A stretch of DNA of 25,360 nucleotides from a virus (IMGVR_UViG_2529292905_000020), one strand, 5' to 3'; shown: positions 1,575 to 25,360, counted from the stretch's first letter. Numbers and translations are program-made. The notes: generated by a model from the letters alone, not told the origin.

Positions 1575-4046
1575 TTAAAAATCAGCCTGATTCGGGAGCA
1601 GTTTTTGCCAGATAGTTGAAACGTATTTTGCCTGGTAACGGGCATCATCCAGCGCATTGTGGCGCTCACCTTCGAATGGGATAGCAGTTCTGGCATCGAA
1701 GTCTACGGCTTTCCCCAGCTCAACGATTGTGCGTACATCGCGATCGTTGCAGTAGCGCCACGGGCAGGGGATACCCTGTCGTTCGTATGAACGGCGCAAA
1801 ATAGTGTTGTCGAAGTTGGCCCCATTACCCCAGACCTGAACAAAAAACTCACCGGAGTTTTCGTCGATAAATTCCCGCAATTGCAGTAGTGCATCATCTA
1901 ACGGGATTTCATCGGTCATAATGGCAGACTGCGCTTCACGTGATTGCTTCAGCCACCATTTAATGACGTCACGATCAATGACTCCGCCAGCAGTATCCAG
2001 ATCGATGGTCTTGCTAAATTCTGGTCCCATATCTCCGGTTTGCGGATCGAAAAATATTGCGCCTATTGAGATAATCGGGGCATCGGGATTTTTTCCCATG
2101 GTTTCAAGGTCGATCATCAGATGAATCCCCGCTCTGCTGGTGGATGTGAGATTATGATGACTGTTCGCCTTAATTAAGGGATCTGACGCCTCGCCAGTTT
2201 CACTATCGCTGGCATGATGCTGATTGCCGCCAGTGTTCTCCTTGTGCTGATGTGCAGTACCTTCCATTTCCTCCGGATCATTTTCCTGAACTTCAGGCTG
2301 ATTCTCTTCATCGAATATTTCCTGGTATGTTGCGTCGCCCATCACCGCGCCACAATCAGGGCAGTTGCCGCCGCCGGTCTGACCGCAGGCGGTGCAGACT
2401 TTTTCCACTTCCTGTTGCGCCACTGGTTCAGGCTGTTTCGTTTCTGGCTCGTTTTGTAACGCATTTGGGCTGTTTTGTTCCGCTTTCTGGTCGTTCTGTT
2501 CCGTTTCTTGCTGGTTCTGGTTCACAGAATCGCGGGTTTCAATCCCCTTCACCCATTTCGGATCATTCGGGTCGCTAATCCCTGCAACAAATTCACCACG
2601 TGATGCGGCGAGCAACTGATTGGCGTCAGGCTGGCTGATATTGGCTGCCTGCATAATTTTCTTTACTTCGTCAGCGGTAACTTTTACCGGTTCTGGTTGT
2701 TCAGAATTTTGTGCGGTATTTGCATTTTGCGGTAAGCCTGTGTATGTGCCATTTTTTCGGGCAAAATATTCTTCTTTTGTGATTTCAGTAGCCCCGGCAG
2801 CCAGCGCCTTATCCAGACCAGAAAGTTTGTTTGCGCGACCGTATTTTTCGCAATCCTTGTCGGTGAAGAGGAAGTAGAACGGCCCCTCACGCTCTACAGA
2901 TGGTTCGACTTCCACTTTGCATTCGGTTTTTTCGTTGTCCGGAATTGCCGTTTCCACTGCATCAGTTTCTGGTACTGGCGACGAGAGAGTATCAGTTGCG
3001 CTCTGATTTCTTCCTTCATCTTCAAACACGCCCTTTGTAGTCAGGTATTCAGTAATGTATTTGTTCAGTGCCACAGGGTCTTTGTGAATGTCGATCGGAC
3101 GTTCACGGATAAGGCCAAAAATAGTCTGGCGGTCGTAGCGAAGGGCATCAGGCTGTTTGCGCATTGATGCCGAGATACGCTTCCAGTCTTCGCGGTCGTT
3201 GTCGATAACTTCATTTTTTGCCCAGCGATGGATGCTGCCGTCAATGTTTCCGGCATCCACATCACCAGGCCAGAGAGCGTAGGCCAGTTCGTCATCCAGT
3301 GTTTTCCATGTCTGCTTGTATTCGCGATGAATGGCAGCAATGACCGGGTTGATTTTTCCTGTTGAATTTTCAGTGTGCTGTTGATTGGCTCTGGCGCGGG
3401 CGAGATCAACAACAGACGTGTATTTTCCGGCTTCCTTGCGTTCACCTTCGCGACGTTTTTTCCAGATGCGCATCTCTGCCTGAATTTCGGGCCATTTGGC
3501 ACCAGGCTTACATTTATGCTTAACCCACCCGATGGCATGCAGCTTAAGCTCCGGATACATAGCGTTAACTTCTGGCATTTTCATCAACGCTTCAACGATA
3601 TGGCCGTCGAATGTTGCCATGTCTTCCTGCAACAATTCCTGTGCGCTAATCACCATATCAACAGTGATGTTTTCACATGTGTCGAACTTAACCATGACAG
3701 CGTTCTGTACTTCAGGGGCCAGCTTGTCAAAAGCGACGTTCATCGGATCTGATTCAGTCTCAACCGGGACAAAGGAAGCAGCCCCCTCATCCCAGCGGTT
3801 TTCCTGCATATATTCAGCATCCCAGGAATCGAGGGCAGGGCGGGGTATACCGGGTTTATCCTCGCAAACAAGAAATTTATAAGCGCAGTCCTGAGCAGCC
3901 GGATAATGCTCCAGGAATTGCCAGTGAAATTTTGCGCGGGCGCGACGTTCATCACCGGCTTCAATGGCAGTGGCTACAGCGACTGCACCTTCTTCCTTTA
4001 TTGCCTGTTCGTCCGGAATGGCGGCGCAAATAAAGACTTTACTCAT
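1575..4046 (-). CDS. Prophage exonuclease with C-terminal DnaQ-like (DEDDh) 3'-5' exonuclease domain
   Basis: 823-aa ORF. C-terminal ~180 aa carry Exo I/II/III-like motifs (MIDLETMG, WGNGANFD, HNALDDARY). Central CTACGQTGGGNCPDCG looks like a zinc ribbon, flanked by Q/E/N-rich linkers. N-terminal ~500 aa have no motif I recognise. Sits at the lambda exo position. Confidence 0.8.
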   Translation of the reverse strand: MSKVFICAAIPDEQAIKEEGAVAVATAIEAGDERRARAKFHWQFLEHYPAAQDCAYKFLVCEDKPGIPRPALDSWDAEYMQENRWDEGAASFVPVETESDPMNVAFDKLAPEVQNAVMVKFDTCENITVDMVISAQELLQEDMATFDGHIVEALMKMPEVNAMYPELKLHAIGWVKHKCKPGAKWPEIQAEMRIWKKRREGERKEAGKYTSVVDLARARANQQHTENSTGKINPVIAAIHREYKQTWKTLDDELAYALWPGDVDAGNIDGSIHRWAKNEVIDNDREDWKRISASMRKQPDALRYDRQTIFGLIRERPIDIHKDPVALNKYITEYLTTKGVFEDEGRNQSATDTLSSPVPETDAVETAIPDNEKTECKVEVEPSVEREGPFYFLFTDKDCEKYGRANKLSGLDKALAAGATEITKEEYFARKNGTYTGLPQNANTAQNSEQPEPVKVTADEVKKIMQAANISQPDANQLLAASRGEFVAGISDPNDPKWVKGIETRDSVNQNQQETEQNDQKAEQNSPNALQNEPETKQPEPVAQQEVEKVCTACGQTGGGNCPDCGAVMGDATYQEIFDEENQPEVQENDPEEMEGTAHQHKENTGGNQHHASDSETGEASDPLIKANSHHNLTSTSRAGIHLMIDLETMGKNPDAPIISIGAIFFDPQTGDMGPEFSKTIDLDTAGGVIDRDVIKWWLKQSREAQSAIMTDEIPLDDALLQLREFIDENSGEFFVQVWGNGANFDNTILRRSYERQGIPCPWRYCNDRDVRTIVELGKAVDFDARTAIPFEGERHNALDDARYQAKYVSTIWQKLLPNQADF

Positions 4047-6362: not shown

Positions 6363-6568
6363 TGAGAAATCCTCTGCTTCCCCTTAACGCCGGGTAGCGG
6401 AACTGTTTGCTGAGAACACCGTGCGGTGTCTTGATGAGTAGAATTTAGAATAGCCTAAGAGTTATGGTCGAGCTTTTGTGTAGAAAAACCTAAGCTTCTT
6501 GATGTAAAAAACACAAGTATTTGAAAGTTTGTGCTTTTTATTACAGAGAGTTGCGAAAAAAAGGGGGG

Positions 6569-12254: not shown

Positions 12255-12386
12255 TTTTCAACGCGTTTGAAGTTCCGGACGGCGCCGGAATAGAATCAAA
12301 AATACTTAAGTAGCGCGCAGGGAGAAGAGGGATGGACCCCGAACTGAACCGCCCCGGTTTTCCTGGAGAGTGTTTTATCTGTGAAC

Positions 12387-13274
12387 TCAGGCTGCCAGAT
12401 CATCGTTTCTGATGGAAGCATAATAAGCTTTTTCTGCTTCTGCCGGAGGGATATGACCCAGCCTTCCCAGCAATCGTCGATTGTTATACCAGTCCACCCA
12501 CGTGAGTGTGGCCAGTTCCACTTCTGCACGGTTTTTCCAGCTCTTACGGTGTATTACCTCCGCTTTGTAAAGACCATTGATGCTCTCCGCCATCGCGTTG
12601 TCATACGAGTCACCTGTACTCCCTGTTGATGCCAGCAGTTTTGCTTCTTTTAGTCGCTCCGTATAGGCCAGTGATACATACTGAGAACCTTTATCACTGT
12701 GATGGACTGTGCCGGACGGCCGACGGGCCCACAACGCCTGCTCCAGTGCATCCAGCACGAATGTCGTTTCCATAGACGATGAGACTCGCCACCCCACGAT
12801 GCATCCGGCAAACACATCAATGATGAACGCCACATAGACGAAGCCCTGCCATGTGCTGACGTAAGTAAAATCAGCCACCCACAGCTGGTCAGGACGTTCT
12901 GCCACGAACTGACGGTTTACGCGGTCGCCTGCGGAAACGGCTTTCCGGCTGACGGTAGTACGGACCTTTTTACCCCGGAGAACACCGGCAAGTCCCATAA
13001 CCGCCATGAGGCGCGCCACTGTACATCTGGCCACCCTGATACCTTCGCGTAACAACTGGCGCCAGACTTTACGCACACCGTACACCTGATGATTTTCATC
13101 GTATACGCGCTGTATCTCTCTCTTCAGCCAGTCATCGCGCTGCGCACGGGCACTGCGTTTATCAGGATGATGTCGCTGTTGCTGACAGTGGTAATACGTT
13201 GACGGGGCAATATGCAGTTCACTGCATACCGGTCCGACCCCGTACTGCTCACGCAGCTTATCCAGCAGTGGCAT
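12387..13274 (-). CDS. IS629 transposase OrfB (DDE catalytic domain)
   Basis: 295-aa ORF with the IS3-family OrfB C-terminus (...LGHIPPAEAEKAYYASIRNDDLAA). Confidence 0.9.
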   Translation of the reverse strand: MPLLDKLREQYGVGPVCSELHIAPSTYYHCQQQRHHPDKRSARAQRDDWLKREIQRVYDENHQVYGVRKVWRQLLREGIRVARCTVARLMAVMGLAGVLRGKKVRTTVSRKAVSAGDRVNRQFVAERPDQLWVADFTYVSTWQGFVYVAFIIDVFAGCIVGWRVSSSMETTFVLDALEQALWARRPSGTVHHSDKGSQYVSLAYTERLKEAKLLASTGSTGDSYDNAMAESINGLYKAEVIHRKSWKNRAEVELATLTWVDWYNNRRLLGRLGHIPPAEAEKAYYASIRNDDLAA

Positions 13275-13600
13275 TATTTTTTCCAGAGGCGGTCGAACTC
13301 CGCCTTCGCAAAATAAGCGGAAGCCTGGCGAAGGATATCGTTACTGCGGCGCAGTTCACGATTTTCACGTTCCAGCTCTTTCAGACGCTGACGTTCAGCG
13401 GTGGTGAATCCACCATCACCACTCCCGGTATCCCGCTCATGCTGACGAACCCACACACGCAGAGTCTCTGGCGTACAGCCAATCTTTGGGGCAATGGAAC
13501 AAATTGCCGCCCATTGTGAGTCATATTCGCCCTGACTTTCCAGAACCATACGAACTGCCCGTTGACGGACCTCGGGGGAAAAACGTGTATTTTTAGTCAT
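13274..13600 (-). CDS. IS629 transposase OrfA (HTH)
   Basis: 108-aa [22 protein letters not shown]... matching remembered IS629 OrfA. Its stop overlaps the OrfB ATG (TAATG) beside an A6 run. Confidence 0.9.
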
Positions 13601-13692
13601 CCTGTTTACCTCTTTCTCAGGGAGTTTAGTCTCCAGGATTCCCGGGGCGGTTCAAACAGGGGGAGTGCTATTTATCTGGAAGGATTCTGTTG

Positions 13693-15355: not shown

Positions 15356-15721
15356 ATGACTGAACGGATAGAATTTGTTTTGCCTTACCCGCCGACGGTG
15401 AATACCTACTGGCGACGTCATGGCAATACGTATTTCATCTCGGAAGCCGGAAAGCGTTATCGCCGTGATGTGGCGCTAATTGTTCGCCAGCAGCGGCTGA
15501 AATTAAACCTGTCCGGAAGGCTGGTGATAAAGATTATTGCAGAGCCACCGGATAAGCGCCGTCGTGACCTGGACAATATCCTGAAAGCACCACTGGATGT
15601 GCTGACGCATGCCGGACTTCTCATAGACGACGAGCAGTTTGATGAAATCAATATTGTGCGCGGTCAGCTCGTTCCTGGTGGGCGGCTGGGGATAAAAATC
15701 ACAGAACTGGAGTGCGCATGA
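15356..15721 (+). CDS. rusA: RusA Holliday-junction resolvase
   Basis: 121-aa ORF with RusA hallmarks (YPPTVNTYWRRHGN..., RRRDLDNILKAPLDVLTHAGLLIDDEQ). Confidence 0.9.
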   Translation: MTERIEFVLPYPPTVNTYWRRHGNTYFISEAGKRYRRDVALIVRQQRLKLNLSGRLVIKIIAEPPDKRRRDLDNILKAPLDVLTHAGLLIDDEQFDEINIVRGQLVPGGRLGIKITELECA

Positions 15722-15876
15722 ATAACCACTATTTACAGTTTGTGCGTGAGCAGCTCATTATCGCCACCGCTGATTTGAGTGGGGCAACAAAAGGTCAGCT
15801 TGAAGCCTGGCAGGAGAATGCCATGTTCGATACAGGGCGTTACAGGCGAAAAAAATCCGGTACCGCGATGAAGTGA
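15718..15876 (+). CDS. Small hypothetical protein (52 aa)
   Basis: Below the ORF-track size cutoff. ATG overlaps the rusA stop (ATGA); its stop overlaps the GTG of the next gene. Position matches the small gene between rusA and Q in DLP12-type prophages. Confidence 0.3.
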   Translation: MNNHYLQFVREQLIIATADLSGATKGQLEAWQENAMFDTGRYRRKKSGTAMK

Positions 15877-16406
15877 CTGGAAAAATGATAACGCGGGATA
15901 ATCCACCAATCCCGGGAAAGCAATCGCTGGCGAAGGTGACGTCAATTCCTCTGGTCAGTCCGGTTGAGTTTTCGACATCATCGTGGCGGCGGGCTGTTCT
16001 GTCTCTTGAAGAACATCATAAAGCCTGGTTGTTGTGGTGTTACAGCGGGAGTATTTGTTGGGAATATCAGATCGCGATAACACAGTGGGCGTGGAATGAA
16101 TTTAATACTCAATCCGGTACCAGAAAAATTGCTGGGAAAACGCAGGAACGCCTGAAAAAATTAATCTGGCTGGCGGCGCAGGCAGTAAAAGCAGAACTTT
16201 TTGGTGGGGAAGGTTATGAATATCAGGAGCTGGCATTACTGGCGGGAGTGACAACTAAAAACTGGTCCAAAACATTTACTCGTCACTGGGTTGCAATGAA
16301 ACACATTTTTCACCGACTGGATAGTGAGGCTTTATTATTTGTAATGAGAACACGTTCAAAACAAAAGGCGGCATTTTCAAAGCAAAGTGTTGCAAAAGTA
16401 GATTGA
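15873..16406 (+). CDS. Putative late-gene antiterminator (Q-like)
   Basis: 177-aa ORF between rusA and the late promoter/tRNA cluster. Assignment is mainly positional; the family is not confidently recognised. Confidence 0.5.
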   Translation: MTGKMITRDNPPIPGKQSLAKVTSIPLVSPVEFSTSSWRRAVLSLEEHHKAWLLWCYSGSICWEYQIAITQWAWNEFNTQSGTRKIAGKTQERLKKLIWLAAQAVKAELFGGEGYEYQELALLAGVTTKNWSKTFTRHWVAMKHIFHRLDSEALLFVMRTRSKQKAAFSKQSVAKVD

Positions 16407-17013: not shown

Positions 17014-17446
17014 ATGTTTGGTATTTTTGGTAAAAAAAGCCCGCAGAGCGGCAACGGAAATTAAAAAGTTTGAAAAACGCGATCTGGCACAGGTGGTGAT
17101 TAACGCCGCATACCTGGTGGCCTATGCAGATGGTGAATGTGAGGCTTCCTAGAAAGCGAAGATCGAACAGGTACTGCGTAATCAGCCTGCGCTGTCCGCG
17201 TTTACGTCAGAAATTAATGCGATTAGCGCAACCATTATCGGTCAGCTGGATACGAACTTTAAAACTGGTCGTCGTGCGGCGTTACGTGAGATCGAGGATG
17301 TGAAACACGATACGCGTGAAGCGGAAGATGTGCTGGATGTGGCGGTGGCCATTGCGGAGGCAGACGGCGAAATTGAGCCGGAAGAGCGCAAGGTGCTGGA
17401 AGAGATTGCCGGTGTTCTGGGTCTTCGTCTGGAGAATTACCTGTGA
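17014..17446 (+). pseudogene. TerB-like domain gene, disrupted (frameshift plus in-frame amber)
   Basis: ATG 17014 with AAAGGAA upstream encodes MFGIFGKKSPQSGNGN then stop. The +1 frame continues IKKFEKRDLAQVVINAAYLVAYADGECEAS, TAG at 17150-17152, then KAKIEQVL...AIAEADGEIEPEERKVLEEIAGVLGL ending at 17446. The ADG-containing repeats suggest a TerB-like fold. Confidence 0.5.
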
Positions 17447-21390: not shown

Positions 21391-21854
21391 TGTTTTGTTA
21401 TGAAGATGTTACTGGTAACATTAAGGTAATTTAACAAAGAGTCAGTTCCGGACTTTATAGTGTGCTCAGTTCATGGCCAAAAACGATTTCTGTGATAAAT
21501 ATTTTGAATATTATTTACAGGTAAATGGAGTGGGGCGCATGGATAGAAATATTACAATAGAGTATGAAGTATATGCCCGTATTGTATGGGCAGAGAAGGC
21601 AAAAACACGGTAAATCCGTGTGTTGCCATGATACCTGATTGGCAGAATAGTTGTTTGGTTTTGAGTATATAGTCAGCGTTTTTTGTTCAGTAATTGCCCC
21701 CTCAAAAAATAATAAAATAAGGTGATTATTTTTGTTTATTATTTAGTTTTTTTGTGTGTTATTTTATTGTTTTTGCGTGGTTTGTTTTTTATTGTTATTT
21801 CATTAAGGGAAGGTAAATTCAGGATGGCAGTCTGTAGATAATCGGAGGTCACTT

Positions 21855-22250: not shown

Positions 22251-22475
22251 TTAAGTAAACCTGTCTGAACAGGTGCTCTGGTCGTGTTTGTCTTTGTTGG
22301 GTACAAATTGAGAATATTTTTCATTAATTAATCTTCTTCTGCAGGCTTCAATAACCCACGCTGAAAAATTACCTGAACCTTTCTGGTCAAGAGCGATGTT
22401 AATTTGTTCAATCATCTGGTTTGGAAATCGGATGTTGCGGGTTGTTGTTCTGCGGGTCCGGTTTTTCGGTGACAT
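22251..22475 (-). CDS. Putative ribbon-helix-helix DNA-binding protein
   Basis: 74-aa ORF with GAGGAAAG upstream. RNIRFPNQMIEQINIALDQKGSGNFSAWVIEACRRRL fits a beta-strand then helix-helix RHH pattern. Confidence 0.45.
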   Translation of the reverse strand: MSPKNRTRRTTTRNIRFPNQMIEQINIALDQKGSGNFSAWVIEACRRRLINEKYSQFVPNKDKHDQSTCSDRFT

Positions 22476-22516
22476 TTTCTTTCCTCTGGTAACAAGCTAT
22501 ATGGCGAGGATTTTAC

Positions 22517-22978
22517 ATGGCCGTGCTTCGTACGTTACCGGGCAGAATCAAAACTCTGAATACCCGGCGGGTGAATGTCCTGAAGGGTGAACAGCGTCGG
22601 GTCAGTGGCAGTGCCCGGGTTTCCCTCAAGCGTCGTATCTGGCTGAGGGATGCCGGACAGTGCTGTCTCTGTGGGCGTGTGGTTGACCTTTGTGACAGTG
22701 AACTCGATCACCGCATTGCACTTCAGTTCGGTGGTGGTAATGAGGAGACGAATCTCTGGACGCTCTGTACCGAATGCCATCGCCAGAAGTCAGTCAGTGA
22801 AACGGCGAGTGGTATGCCGGACCCGACGCTGCCGGAGGTCATGGCAGGGCAGACGATATCATCGGACTGTGACCCGCCCCGGGGGGGGATCATCCGGCGA
22901 AAAAAACGATCGTCCCGGACACCGCCCCCCGTCTCACGCAGAGAAAAAATTCCCGTTTCAGGGCTGTTAACATGTTAA
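22517..22978 (+). CDS. HNH endonuclease (terminase-associated)
   Basis: 153-aa ORF with GAGGA upstream. Motif CCLCGR...DHRIALQFGG...NLWTLCTECHRQK. Directly upstream of the terminase genes. The 3' end runs through homopolymer tracts, so its exact end is uncertain. Confidence 0.8.
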   Translation: MAVLRTLPGRIKTLNTRRVNVLKGEQRRVSGSARVSLKRRIWLRDAGQCCLCGRVVDLCDSELDHRIALQFGGGNEETNLWTLCTECHRQKSVSETASGMPDPTLPEVMAGQTISSDCDPPRGGIIRRKKRSSRTPPPVSRREKIPVSGLLTC

Positions 22979-23089
22979 CTGGCTGTCCGGGCATTTTTGC
23001 GGTTTTTATCTTTATTATTCAGTTTGTTGCGTGGAAAAAATGTTAACAGGCTTTTTCAGCAAATGTTAACCAGGCAGCAGTTAACATTT
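22965..23089. repeat. Cluster of five GTTAAC-containing motifs (candidate terminase-binding / cos-proximal sites)
   Basis: GTTAAC at 22966, 22974, 23042, 23065, 23080. Includes the palindrome GTTAACATGTTAAC (22966-22979) and inverted pair AAATGTTAAC / GTTAACATTT (23061-23070 / 23080-23089). Confidence 0.45.
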
Positions 23090-23161
23090 GCGGCATGAGA
23101 CGCCGGGAAAAATGGGCTGAACCATACCCGGCTGAGTGCGTTATGGACCCGGGAGGAGGCT

Positions 23162-23725
23162 GTGCTGACAACGCAAAAACGAAAATTTGCGCTGGCGCTC
23201 ATGTCCGGGAAAAACAAAACAGCGTCAGCCCTTGCCGCCGGTTATTCGGCGAAGACCGCCAGGGTTAAAGGCTCGCAGCTGGCAAAAGATCCGGAGGTGC
23301 TTGCGTTTATAGCCCGTAAACAGTGCGAAACGGTGGAGGTGGATGAGGTTCCTGTTTACCGGCAGAAAAAATCAGAGCAGGAGGATAAACCCCGTCGCCG
23401 TGAGGTGGCTGCAATACCACAGCCGGACGAAAAAAATCCGGAGATGCCTCCGCCCGCGGTGATATCTCATGGTATTGAATATATGGAGGATGGTCTTCCC
23501 GATCCGGTGAAAGCTATGGGGCAGATCCTGGTGGAAAACCTGATAATTGACCCGAAACTGGCACTGGATGCGGCCTGGCGACTGGCGCAGTTCACACACC
23601 ATAAAAAAGGCGATGCCGGTAAAAAATCGGCAAAAGGTGATGCCGCGAAAAAAGCGGCTAACCGTTTTTCGGTGCCACCATCTCCCCGACTGGTGGTGAA
23701 TAACCAGAATGAGGAAAGCGGATGA
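23162..23725 (+). CDS. Terminase small subunit
   Basis: 187-aa ORF, GTG start with GGAGGAGG upstream. N-terminal KRKFALALMSGKNKTASALAAGYSAKTARVKGSQLAKDPEV resembles small-terminase DNA-binding domains. ATGA overlap with the large subunit. Confidence 0.8.
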   Translation: MLTTQKRKFALALMSGKNKTASALAAGYSAKTARVKGSQLAKDPEVLAFIARKQCETVEVDEVPVYRQKKSEQEDKPRRREVAAIPQPDEKNPEMPPPAVISHGIEYMEDGLPDPVKAMGQILVENLIIDPKLALDAAWRLAQFTHHKKGDAGKKSAKGDAAKKAANRFSVPPSPRLVVNNQNEESG

Positions 23726-25176
23726 TACCTGTATGGAGCACGGCATGTCCGGACTGGGCAGAGCGCCTGAAAAAGGGACTGTCGATTATTCCGGCTCCGA
23801 TTTATCCGGACCAGGCTGCACATGCACTGGCGATTTTTAAACAACTGCGGATTGTGGATGCACCGGGTAGCCCGACGTTCGGGGAGTCCTGCGCACAGTG
23901 GGTGTTTGACCTGGTGGCGGCCCTGTTTGGCTCCTATGATGCGCAGACCGGTGTACGCCATATCAAGGAAGTTTTTATCCTTATCCCCAAGAAAAACAGT
24001 AAGTCCACGCTGGCCGCGGGGATCATGATGACGGCGCTGTTACTGAACTGGCGGCAGGCGGCGGGCTACACCATTCTGGCCCCGACCGTGGAGGTGGCGG
24101 CTAACGCCTTCAACCCTGCCAGGGATATGGTACGACGGGACGATGATCTGGATGACCTCTGTCAGGTGCAGACACATATCCGGACCATCACCCATCGGGT
24201 GACGGACACCACCCTGAAGGTGGTGGCAGCCGATCCGAATACGGTGTCCGGTATCAAGTCCGTGGGGACACTGATTGATGAACTGTGGCTGTTTGGCAAG
24301 CAGTACAAAGCGGAAGACATGCTACGTGAAGCCATCGGCGGGCTTGCCTCCCGTCCGGAAGGATTTGTGGTGTACACAACCACCCAGTCGAATGAACCGC
24401 CTGCCGGGGTGTTCAGACAGAAACTGCAGTACGCCCGGGATGTCCGTGACGGCAAAATTCATGATCCGCACTTTCTGCCGGTGATTTTTGAGCATCCTCC
24501 TGAAATGGTGGAAAGCGGGGCTCACCTGCTGATGGAAAACCTCGCCATGGTTAACCCGAATCTCGGTTATTCGGTGGATGAGGCTTTTCTGTACCGGGAG
24601 TACCGTAAAGCCCGGGAGGCTGGTGAGGAAGCATTTCGTGGCTTCATGTCAAAACACGCCAATGTGGAAATCGGTCTTGCCCTGCGTTCTGACCGCTGGG
24701 CGGGCGCGGATTTCTGGGAGCAGCAGGGCAGGCGCGTCAGCCTGGACGATATCCTGCAGCGCGCTGATGTGGTGACGGTGGGGATTGACGGCGGGGGCCT
24801 GGATGATCTGCTGGGAATGTACGTGATTGGCCGTGACAGGGAAACCCGCGAATGGCTGGGCTGGGGCCATGCCTGGGTGCATGAAACCGCGGTGGTCAGA
24901 CGGAAGAGTGAGGCATCCCGGTTTCAGGATTTTGTGGCCTGTGGAGACATGACGATTGTCCGTCGGGTCGGGGATGACACGGCGGAAGTGGCGGAGTATG
25001 TGCGTCGTATTCATGAGGCTGAGTTACTGGATCATATCGGTATTGACCCGTCAGGTGTGGGGCAGATTCTGGATTCACTGGCGGAAGCCGGGATCCCCGA
25101 TGAGAGTGTGGTGGGGATAAGCCAGGGCTGGAAGCTGGGCGGGGCCATCAAAAACCACCGAGCGCAAACTGGCTGA
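23722..25176 (+). CDS. Terminase large subunit, reading frame interrupted near its 3' end
   Basis: 484-aa ORF with P-loop-like LIPKKNSKST. Ends ...GGAIKNHRAQTG-stop; homology clearly continues in the +1 frame from about 25157. Apparent 1-bp insertion in the A5 run at 25150-25154. Confidence 0.85.
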   Translation: MIPVWSTACPDWAERLKKGLSIIPAPIYPDQAAHALAIFKQLRIVDAPGSPTFGESCAQWVFDLVAALFGSYDAQTGVRHIKEVFILIPKKNSKSTLAAGIMMTALLLNWRQAAGYTILAPTVEVAANAFNPARDMVRRDDDLDDLCQVQTHIRTITHRVTDTTLKVVAADPNTVSGIKSVGTLIDELWLFGKQYKAEDMLREAIGGLASRPEGFVVYTTTQSNEPPAGVFRQKLQYARDVRDGKIHDPHFLPVIFEHPPEMVESGAHLLMENLAMVNPNLGYSVDEAFLYREYRKAREAGEEAFRGFMSKHANVEIGLALRSDRWAGADFWEQQGRRVSLDDILQRADVVTVGIDGGGLDDLLGMYVIGRDRETREWLGWGHAWVHETAVVRRKSEASRFQDFVACGDMTIVRRVGDDTAEVAEYVRRIHEAELLDHIGIDPSGVGQILDSLAEAGIPDESVVGISQGWKLGGAIKNHRAQTG

Positions 25177-25360
25177 GGGAGTGCTGGTGCATGGTGGTCA
25201 GCCACTGATGGCCTGGTGCGTTGGCAATGCCCGGGTGGAGCCTAAAGGTAACGCCATTCTTATCACCAAACAGGCCAGCGGACGGGGAAAAATTGACCCG
25301 CTGATGGCGCTGTTCAATGCGGTCTCCCTGATGTCCCTTAACCCGGAACCGAAAAAGAAA
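25157..25360 (+). other. Out-of-frame continuation of the large terminase coding sequence (partial, runs off the window)
   Basis: +1 frame reads TERKLAEGVLVHGGQPLMAWCVGNARVEPKGNAILITKQASGRGKIDPLMALFNAVSLMS... with no stop to the window end. Confidence 0.6.

Follow-up and report, generated by a model that had tools for sequence, protein, structure and literature searches.

An extra adenine that breaks the large terminase gene of an Escherichia coli DEC5E prophage is very probably an error of the draft assembly

The gene for the large terminase (TerL) at the end of the analyzed stretch of DNA is interrupted by one surplus A in a short homopolymer run. We consider it highly probable that this base is not part of the organism's genome but a consensus error of the 2012 draft contig AIFU01000008.1 of E. 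coli DEC5E, made where paralogs were collapsed near a contig end. The stretch, which is called the window throughout, is 25,360 nucleotides long and belongs to a lambdoid prophage that is integrated at ompW. DEC5E has a second prophage, phage JLK-2012 (JQ347801.1), with a closely similar terminase gene. The run of five As was found in a single assembly, the sequence changes to alleles of JLK-2012 shortly after it, the contig then ends, and independent data for the same lineage contain an intact gene. How the miscall came about, by mixing of reads or by a homopolymer error of the sequencing platform, we infer from assembled sequences and not from reads. The results hold no new biology, as the terminase is a known one and its lesion is most likely not real. 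The features discussed below are compiled in Table 1.

Table 1. Positions of the features in the window
Feature	Position	Strand	Remarks
T4 run (relatives T5)	6474-6477		also in sister assemblies
IS629	12345-13654	-	1,310 bp; target duplication AAC (3 bp); between hokD and Rem-like gene; empty site in DEC5A
Antiterminator Q gene	15718-16406	+	split into 52 + 173 aa by the A7 run; A8 and intact (229 aa) in DEC5A, L020 and L021
A7 run (relatives A8)	15849-15855	+	splits Q
T7 run (relatives T8)	21747-21753		homopolymer indel versus DEC5A
HNH endonuclease gene	22517-22978	+	frameshifted by the G8 run; G9 in relatives gives intact 176 aa
G8 run (relatives G9)	22881-22888	+	breaks HNH
Small terminase (TerS) gene	23162-23725	+	187 aa; V35 allele, due to the JLK-type alleles of sites 23264 and 23302
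TerL ORF, deposited form	23722-25176	+	484 aa, 477 native + 7 out-of-frame residues
Stretch without differences between TerL of the ompW prophage and of JLK-2012	24915-25278		364 bases; includes the A-run; flanking discriminating sites 24914 and 25279
A5 run (A4 in all relatives examined)	25150-25154	+	surplus A shifts the frame and breaks TerL
TerL C-terminal continuation	25157-25360	+	+1 frame, 68 codons; reaches the contig end
Premature TGA	25174-25176	+	in the shifted frame; read from sequence and ORF list
Four synonymous substitutions, JLK-2012 allele	25312-25342		25312 G, 25324 C, 25339 T, 25342 C; less than 50 bases from the contig end

The interrupted terminase gene and its product

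In the ORF list of the window, the deposited TerL gene is closed by the TGA in the shifted frame, and the native part of the protein is followed by the out-of-frame tail NHRAQTG. The +1 frame downstream of the run is free of stop codons, opens with TERKLAEGVLVHGG... and translates as TERKLAEGVLVHGGQPLMAWCVGNARVEPKGNAILITKQASGRGKIDPLMALFNAVSLMSLNPEPKKK up to the window end, which falls 24 nt short of the natural TerL stop codon. Deletion of one A joined the two frames into ...GGAIKTTERKLAEGV..., and, with the last eight codons borrowed from DEC5A, resulted in a protein of 553 aa that is 100% identical to WP_001417827.1, the intact TerL of sister O55:H7 strains. The match of the repaired frame to the terminase is not due to chance. 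Over its first 1,612 bases, the terminase region differs from that of the closest complete genome, E. coli 2013C-4465, by the surplus A alone, and four substitutions were found in the final 50 bases of the window. The original prediction had described an ORF stopping at 25176, a run of five As ahead of that stop, terminase-like sequence in the +1 frame from about 25157 to the window end, and restoration of the protein upon removal of one A. All of these coordinates were found in the sequence, and the downstream frame turned out to be open and colinear with the intact homologs of 553 aa.

These alignments are also relevant for the idea of a split terminase, in which the protein would naturally end at 25176 and the downstream frame would be a separate gene with its own start. 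PGAP labels a separate “TerL domain-containing protein” and “TerL endonuclease subunit” in a few genomes, but in those genomes (H15, H47) the split is due to an insertion of the IS3 family. In addition, a start codon in context is missing from the downstream frame, whose sequence runs colinear to the 553-aa protein of all close relatives; the relatives have single proteins of this length, and a natural end at 25176 was not seen among them. A split terminase is thus regarded as extremely improbable.

The repaired protein has the properties of a large terminase of the HK97 type, that is, an ATPase domain with a P-loop, a complete RNase H-like nuclease domain, and the small terminase and head genes as neighbors. 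The ATPase domain (Pfam PF03354, TerL_ATPase) was detected at residues 65-224 with 44 bits (cutoff 23.7) in the truncated and in the repaired protein alike, and its Walker A P-loop, PKKNSKST, aligned to ARKNGKTG of the HK97 large terminase 6z6d. The latter was the only solved homolog found by sequence and could be aligned over residues 85-534. The nuclease domain (PF20441, TerL_nuclease) was detected at residues 276-535 of the repaired protein with 40 bits (cutoff 24), whereas the Pfam search did not yield a match to PF20441 for the deposited form of 484 aa, in which the ATPase domain is retained together with about three quarters of the nuclease domain. Past the frameshift lies a conserved nuclease motif, GKID, which aligned to GRID of 6z6d. 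Judging from this loss of domain sequence, a real frameshift would be expected to cost TerL its nuclease function. The gene for TerS (PF03592) overlaps the start of the TerL gene, and in relatives the TerL gene is followed by a protease-capsid fusion gene and the portal gene.

The portal gene of this phage group lies outside of the window and is labeled “frameshifted” by PGAP (L036 13875-16459, L016 35134-37706, L003 29287 onward). At the loci with both parts called (L036, L040, L044, L047, L049, L054, L055, and JLK-2012) it consists of two ORFs of about 454 and about 407 aa with a four nucleotide overlap. Instead of a pseudogene, this recurring layout may represent a pair of genes or a site of programmed frameshifting.

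Occurrence of the five-A run and independent data

The truncated protein has been deposited as EHV49251.1, “phage Terminase family protein [Escherichia coli DEC5E]”, and is encoded on one contig, AIFU01000008.1 of the draft assembly GCA_000249575.2 (2012). The window represents the final 25,360 bases of the 81,012 bases of this contig. The A-run is located about 210 bases from the assembly break, which lies inside the terminase gene. The prophage is 99.7-99.8% identical to the copy at ompW in closed O55:H7 genomes, in which TerL is annotated as intact.

For analysis of its distribution, an 81 nt query centered on the A-run was compared with 5,426 complete E. coli genomes. Homologous sequences were present at 1,258 places in 623 of these genomes, and an exact match to the five-A form was found at none of them. 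The best match was 80 of 81 over a span one base shorter, and each of the 1,258 places had this shorter form together with a single terminase annotation. The five-A form was also absent from all 93 matching phage records, which carry the shorter form without exception, and the exact string had no match in IMG/VR. In a collection of about 15 billion proteins, the 484-aa product was encoded on one contig and the repaired protein on 194 contigs. Furthermore, four As were read base by base in DEC5A, 2014C-3061, JLK-2012, and the Logan contig L046. In the genomes, phage records, IMG/VR, and the protein collection, the run of five As was thus private to one assembly, as is typical of an artefact.

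Full-length TerL could also be made from the two frames by a programmed +1 shift of the ribosome or by slippage during transcription of the A-run. A programmed frameshift had been called unlikely in the original prediction, and the distribution agrees with that judgement. It is true that a +1 slip on A-AAA-A would give exactly the ...IKTTERK... of the intact homologs. However, the two-frame layout is not conserved (0 of 1,258 places and 0 of 93 phage records), and the relatives that were read base by base have a single ORF of 553 aa. The pause signal for +1 shifts is a rare codon or, usually, a stop codon in the A site, and efficient slippage of RNA polymerase requires runs of about 8-9 or more A/T. 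In the window, the sequence is AUC AAA AAC CAC, the codon after the slip site is AAC and not a stop codon, and the run comprises only five As. Recoding at this site is hardly credible.

Two sources of independent data were available. The first is L046 (run SRR3884820), which covers window positions 22428-25360 (2.9 kb) and is identical to the window with the exception of eight positions. It contains the window-private SNP 22491A as well as 11 JLK-type sites. The eight differences are the run of four As, a run of nine Gs in the HNH gene, and the alleles of the ompW prophage at 23264, at 23302, and at the four terminal sites from 25312 to 25342. TerL of L046 is intact and has 553 aa. The second source is the closed chromosome of DEC5E, CP038383, with a size of 5,571,128 bp, which was sequenced using PacBio (244x) and Illumina (55x; PMC9413875 Table S1). 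In the protein collection, the longest contig listed for the intact TerL has exactly this size, and the same is true for the TerS of the ompW prophage type, the exonuclease allele of the window (5 contigs), and hyp2-L79 (11 contigs). Most simply, this exact match in size would mean that the ompW prophage is present with an intact TerL in the closed DEC5E genome, the location of the intact gene in that prophage being deduced. One conflict was noticed, because the 5,571,128-bp contig is listed with an HNH protein purely of the ompW prophage type, whereas the HNH protein of L046 is chimeric. In a search of the Roary table of PMC9413875 for terminase fragments unique to closed DEC5E, the matches listed belong to another, IS-disrupted terminase locus. 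Taken together, the lesion was not reproduced independently, as L046 has four As and an intact TerL, and an intact TerL is also encoded on the 5,571,128-bp contig.

The original prediction had left the choice between a sequencing error and an inactivating mutation. The first is strengthened by the privacy of the five-A run and by the four As of L046, and the second is weakened by the intact TerL in independent data.

Paralogous prophages and single-base indels of the draft

TerL of JLK-2012 is intact and differs from TerL of the ompW prophage at five residues. A three-way alignment of the window with these two genes was used to assign alleles. From 23733 to 25279, the window has the allele of the ompW prophage at 33 of 33 discriminating sites. 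About 12 differences between the two copies fall around 24600-24640, and C is the base specific to the ompW prophage at 24914 and at 25279. The A-run lies in the long stretch that does not contain any discriminating site, and because the two TerL copies are identical there, reads of both loci would be expected to co-assemble at 24915-25278. The JLK-2012 alleles further downstream mark a switch to the paralog in the final 50-80 bases of the contig. The context of the A-run is thus error-prone in several respects: it is a homopolymer, a contig end is about 210 nt away, and 364 nt are identical between the paralogs and are followed by four JLK-type sites.

We propose the following scenario for the origin of the surplus A. 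The terminase genes of the two lambdoid prophages that DEC5E carries, the ompW prophage and JLK-2012, are nearly identical, and reads from both loci would stack up over the 364 identical bases around the A-run. The assembler, to which the repeat was not separable, would drift to the alleles of the paralog and end the contig about 210 bases further on. A miscalled homopolymer length in the mixed pile-up would result in five As, the true sequence having four, and the true gene would encode an intact HK97-type large terminase of 553 aa with an ATPase and an RNase H-like nuclease.

A second JLK-type block with 13 sites was found upstream, at 22913-23302. Eleven of these sites (22913-23048) are also present in the independent contig L046, and 23264 and 23302 are private to the draft. 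Part of the block may reflect real gene conversion between the two DEC5E prophages. The private change from nine to eight Gs is situated exactly at the left edge of this block. Apart from the draft contig, the TerS allele of the window was found only on L015, an unrelated scaffold from a metagenome. That scaffold was considered as a witness for the A-run and was rejected, as it encodes the same TerS protein but differs at eight sites and ends before the A-run. Overall, the 11.7-kb right arm of the window is 92-96% identical to JLK-2012, and the allele pattern shows it to be a mosaic of two co-resident paralogs with private indels adjoining the switches.

Five single-base indels distinguish the window from closed DEC5A. 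All five are changes in homopolymer length, and a second closed genome sides with DEC5A in every case. The T4 run is a real variant of the lineage because it is common to sister assemblies. The four remaining, private indels are all located within the 11.7-kb right arm. Two sister assemblies with the rare exonuclease allele of the window did not exhibit any indel versus the draft over 20.7 and 14.4 kb, and indels were likewise absent between the draft and DEC5A over 9.8 kb and in 8.4 kb of chromosomal backbone. The view that the whole draft is full of homopolymer errors was rejected, as the left arm is clean in the comparison with the sister assemblies and the T4 variant is real. The argument for an error is thereby narrowed to the right arm shared with the paralog, and it is backed by a calibration on other drafts. 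In an alignment of 6.1 kb, the drafts AIGQ, AIGF, and AIGR, which belong to the neighboring accession series, had 3, 1, and 3 private single-base indels, respectively, and no private indels were found in the Illumina-polished closed DEC5A and in seven assemblies whose accession prefixes are different.

For DEC5A itself, comparison of the draft (AIFQ01) with the closed genome over 21.7 kb of the prophage revealed two substitutions and one T5/T6 change. This discrepancy (L041 6444 / L050 7004) alters the call of the holin from 68 to 91 aa and represents a further draft-dependent gene model in the ompW prophage.

Two additional genes of the right arm are affected by private indels, the gene for the antiterminator Q and the HNH gene. 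In the sister contigs L020 and L021, which otherwise match the window over 3.6 and 5.4 kb with the exception of one SNP, the run has eight As and the Q gene is intact. The G-run of the HNH gene comprises nine Gs in L046; its shortening is the second private homopolymer indel, at a switch from ompW-type to JLK-type sequence, and the product of the G8 form is absent from the protein collection. For TerL and HNH at least, the results point to breaks that are artefacts of a draft in which two prophages were partly merged. PGAP marks the 176-aa form of HNH in DEC5A as an incomplete pseudogene.

The 173-aa fragment of Q is encoded on 24 contigs, some of which come from unrelated assemblies and from a metagenome. 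A 177-aa version of this fragment has no record in the protein collection, in which the 173-aa version of the gene caller is present. The A-run of Q is thus a recurrent hotspot of slippage or error in a key regulator of the late genes. This recurrence of the A8-to-A7 split in unrelated assemblies is the only hint for yet another explanation, according to which A5 in TerL, A7 in Q, and G8 in HNH reflect slipped-strand heterogeneity in DEC5E cultures. If this were true, the tracts in the antiterminator, HNH, and terminase genes would flip frame and form a switch of lytic competence similar to phase variation, and different sequencing efforts would have sampled the DEC5E tracts in different states. 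We judge this to be very unlikely.

Taken at face value, the window describes a prophage that lacks its packaging enzyme, its activator of the late genes (Q), and its helper in cos cleavage (HNH). The pseudogene calls in the late region of the draft (Q, HNH, TerL) are, however, unreliable. More generally, closed genomes or reads are needed first when prophage decay or pseudogenes are called from drafts of O55:H7/O157:H7 strains.

Decay of the prophage and comparison with known systems

Some lesions of the prophage are real. The IS629 junction, at which ...CCCCGAAC is directly followed by TGAACCGCCCCGG..., was confirmed in the independent contig L025, and the contigs L012 and L021 break at the edges of IS629. 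The IS629 copy of the window is 100% identical to the copy inside JLK-2012 of the same strain, and both of its edges coincide with breaks in short-read assemblies of the lineage. The gene of the TerB family at 17018-17446 contains an internal stop codon that is annotated also in closed DEC5A and 2014C-3061; this pseudogene is accordingly real and predates the DEC5E lineage. A decaying, packaging-defective prophage had been suggested in the original prediction. The first part of this suggestion is borne out by IS629 and the TerB stop codon, which support some decay and are independent of TerL, but they do not support a defect in packaging, and the TerL break should not be counted, as TerL is intact in independent data.

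A further peculiarity of the lineage was observed in the exonuclease gene (1575-4046, minus strand), in which about 22 substitutions versus DEC5A and 2014C-3061 are clustered at 2991-3663. The cluster is common to two sister assemblies and is listed on the 5,571,128-bp contig, which is taken as closed DEC5E; therefore, it represents a lineage-specific recombination tract.

The real lesions are one reason to consider that the surplus A is genuine, i.e., that replication slippage from A4 to A5 inactivated TerL in the DEC5E stock that was sequenced in 2012. In that case the ATPase would be kept, the nuclease domain would lack its final 76 residues, and the ompW prophage could not cut and package its DNA. 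As IS629, the TerB stop codon, and a fimbrial pseudogene in closed relatives testify to decay, selection on TerL may be relaxed. Several other observations also speak for a genuine insertion and against an artefact: the draft is otherwise accurate, without indels in the comparisons over 20.7, 14.4, and 9.8 kb; the homopolymer variant at 6474-6477 is real; a short run that changes from A4 to A5 is not a classic site of homopolymer errors; and the truncated protein lacks the Pfam nuclease match and the GKID motif. Moreover, the intact TerL of closed DEC5E was deduced from the size of a contig, and L046 is matched to the draft at the level of the lineage. On the other hand, the five-A run is private to one contig in the collections searched, L046 of the same lineage has four As, and the intact protein is on a contig with the exact size of CP038383. 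In addition, the site lies in the stretch that is identical in the paralog, just ahead of the switch at the contig end, and other draft-private homopolymer changes are contradicted by sister contigs. In the light of these results, a genuine insertion is unlikely; if it were true, it would be an ordinary strain-private pseudogene without wider consequence. An error in the consensus of the draft remains our preferred explanation.

The closest known counterpart of the gene is that of WP_001417827.1, the TerL of a lambdoid prophage of the PPompW type that is integrated at ompW in E. coli O55:H7/O157:H7. After removal of the surplus A, the two proteins are identical, and they share the domains TerL_ATPase and TerL_nuclease with each other and with the HK97-type TerL 6z6d. 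The gene neighbors are also the same, namely HNH and TerS, and then the protease-capsid fusion in relatives, and so is the integration site at ompW. In contrast to the gene of WP_001417827.1, the window has five instead of four As, the frame is split at codon 478, and the final 24 nt are absent at the contig end.

Frameshift pseudogenes are known from decaying prophages, for example from cryptic prophages of the lambdoid type in O157:H7 and K-12 strains. The window resembles them by its IS629 copy, the TerB stop codon, and other pseudogenes, and a truncated TerL would abolish packaging. Unlike in these cases, however, it is the intact gene that recurs in independent sequencing, where a genuine lesion would be expected to recur. 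The window can also be compared with errors in the consensus of draft assemblies where repeats are collapsed and contigs end. The shared characteristics are a variant in one assembly only, a homopolymer, a stretch identical between paralogs, an allele switch straight after it, and an excess of private 1-bp indels in drafts of the neighboring accession series. Differences from such errors are that the run is only extended from four to five As and that the DEC5E draft is otherwise clean across 20 kb of single-copy sequence.
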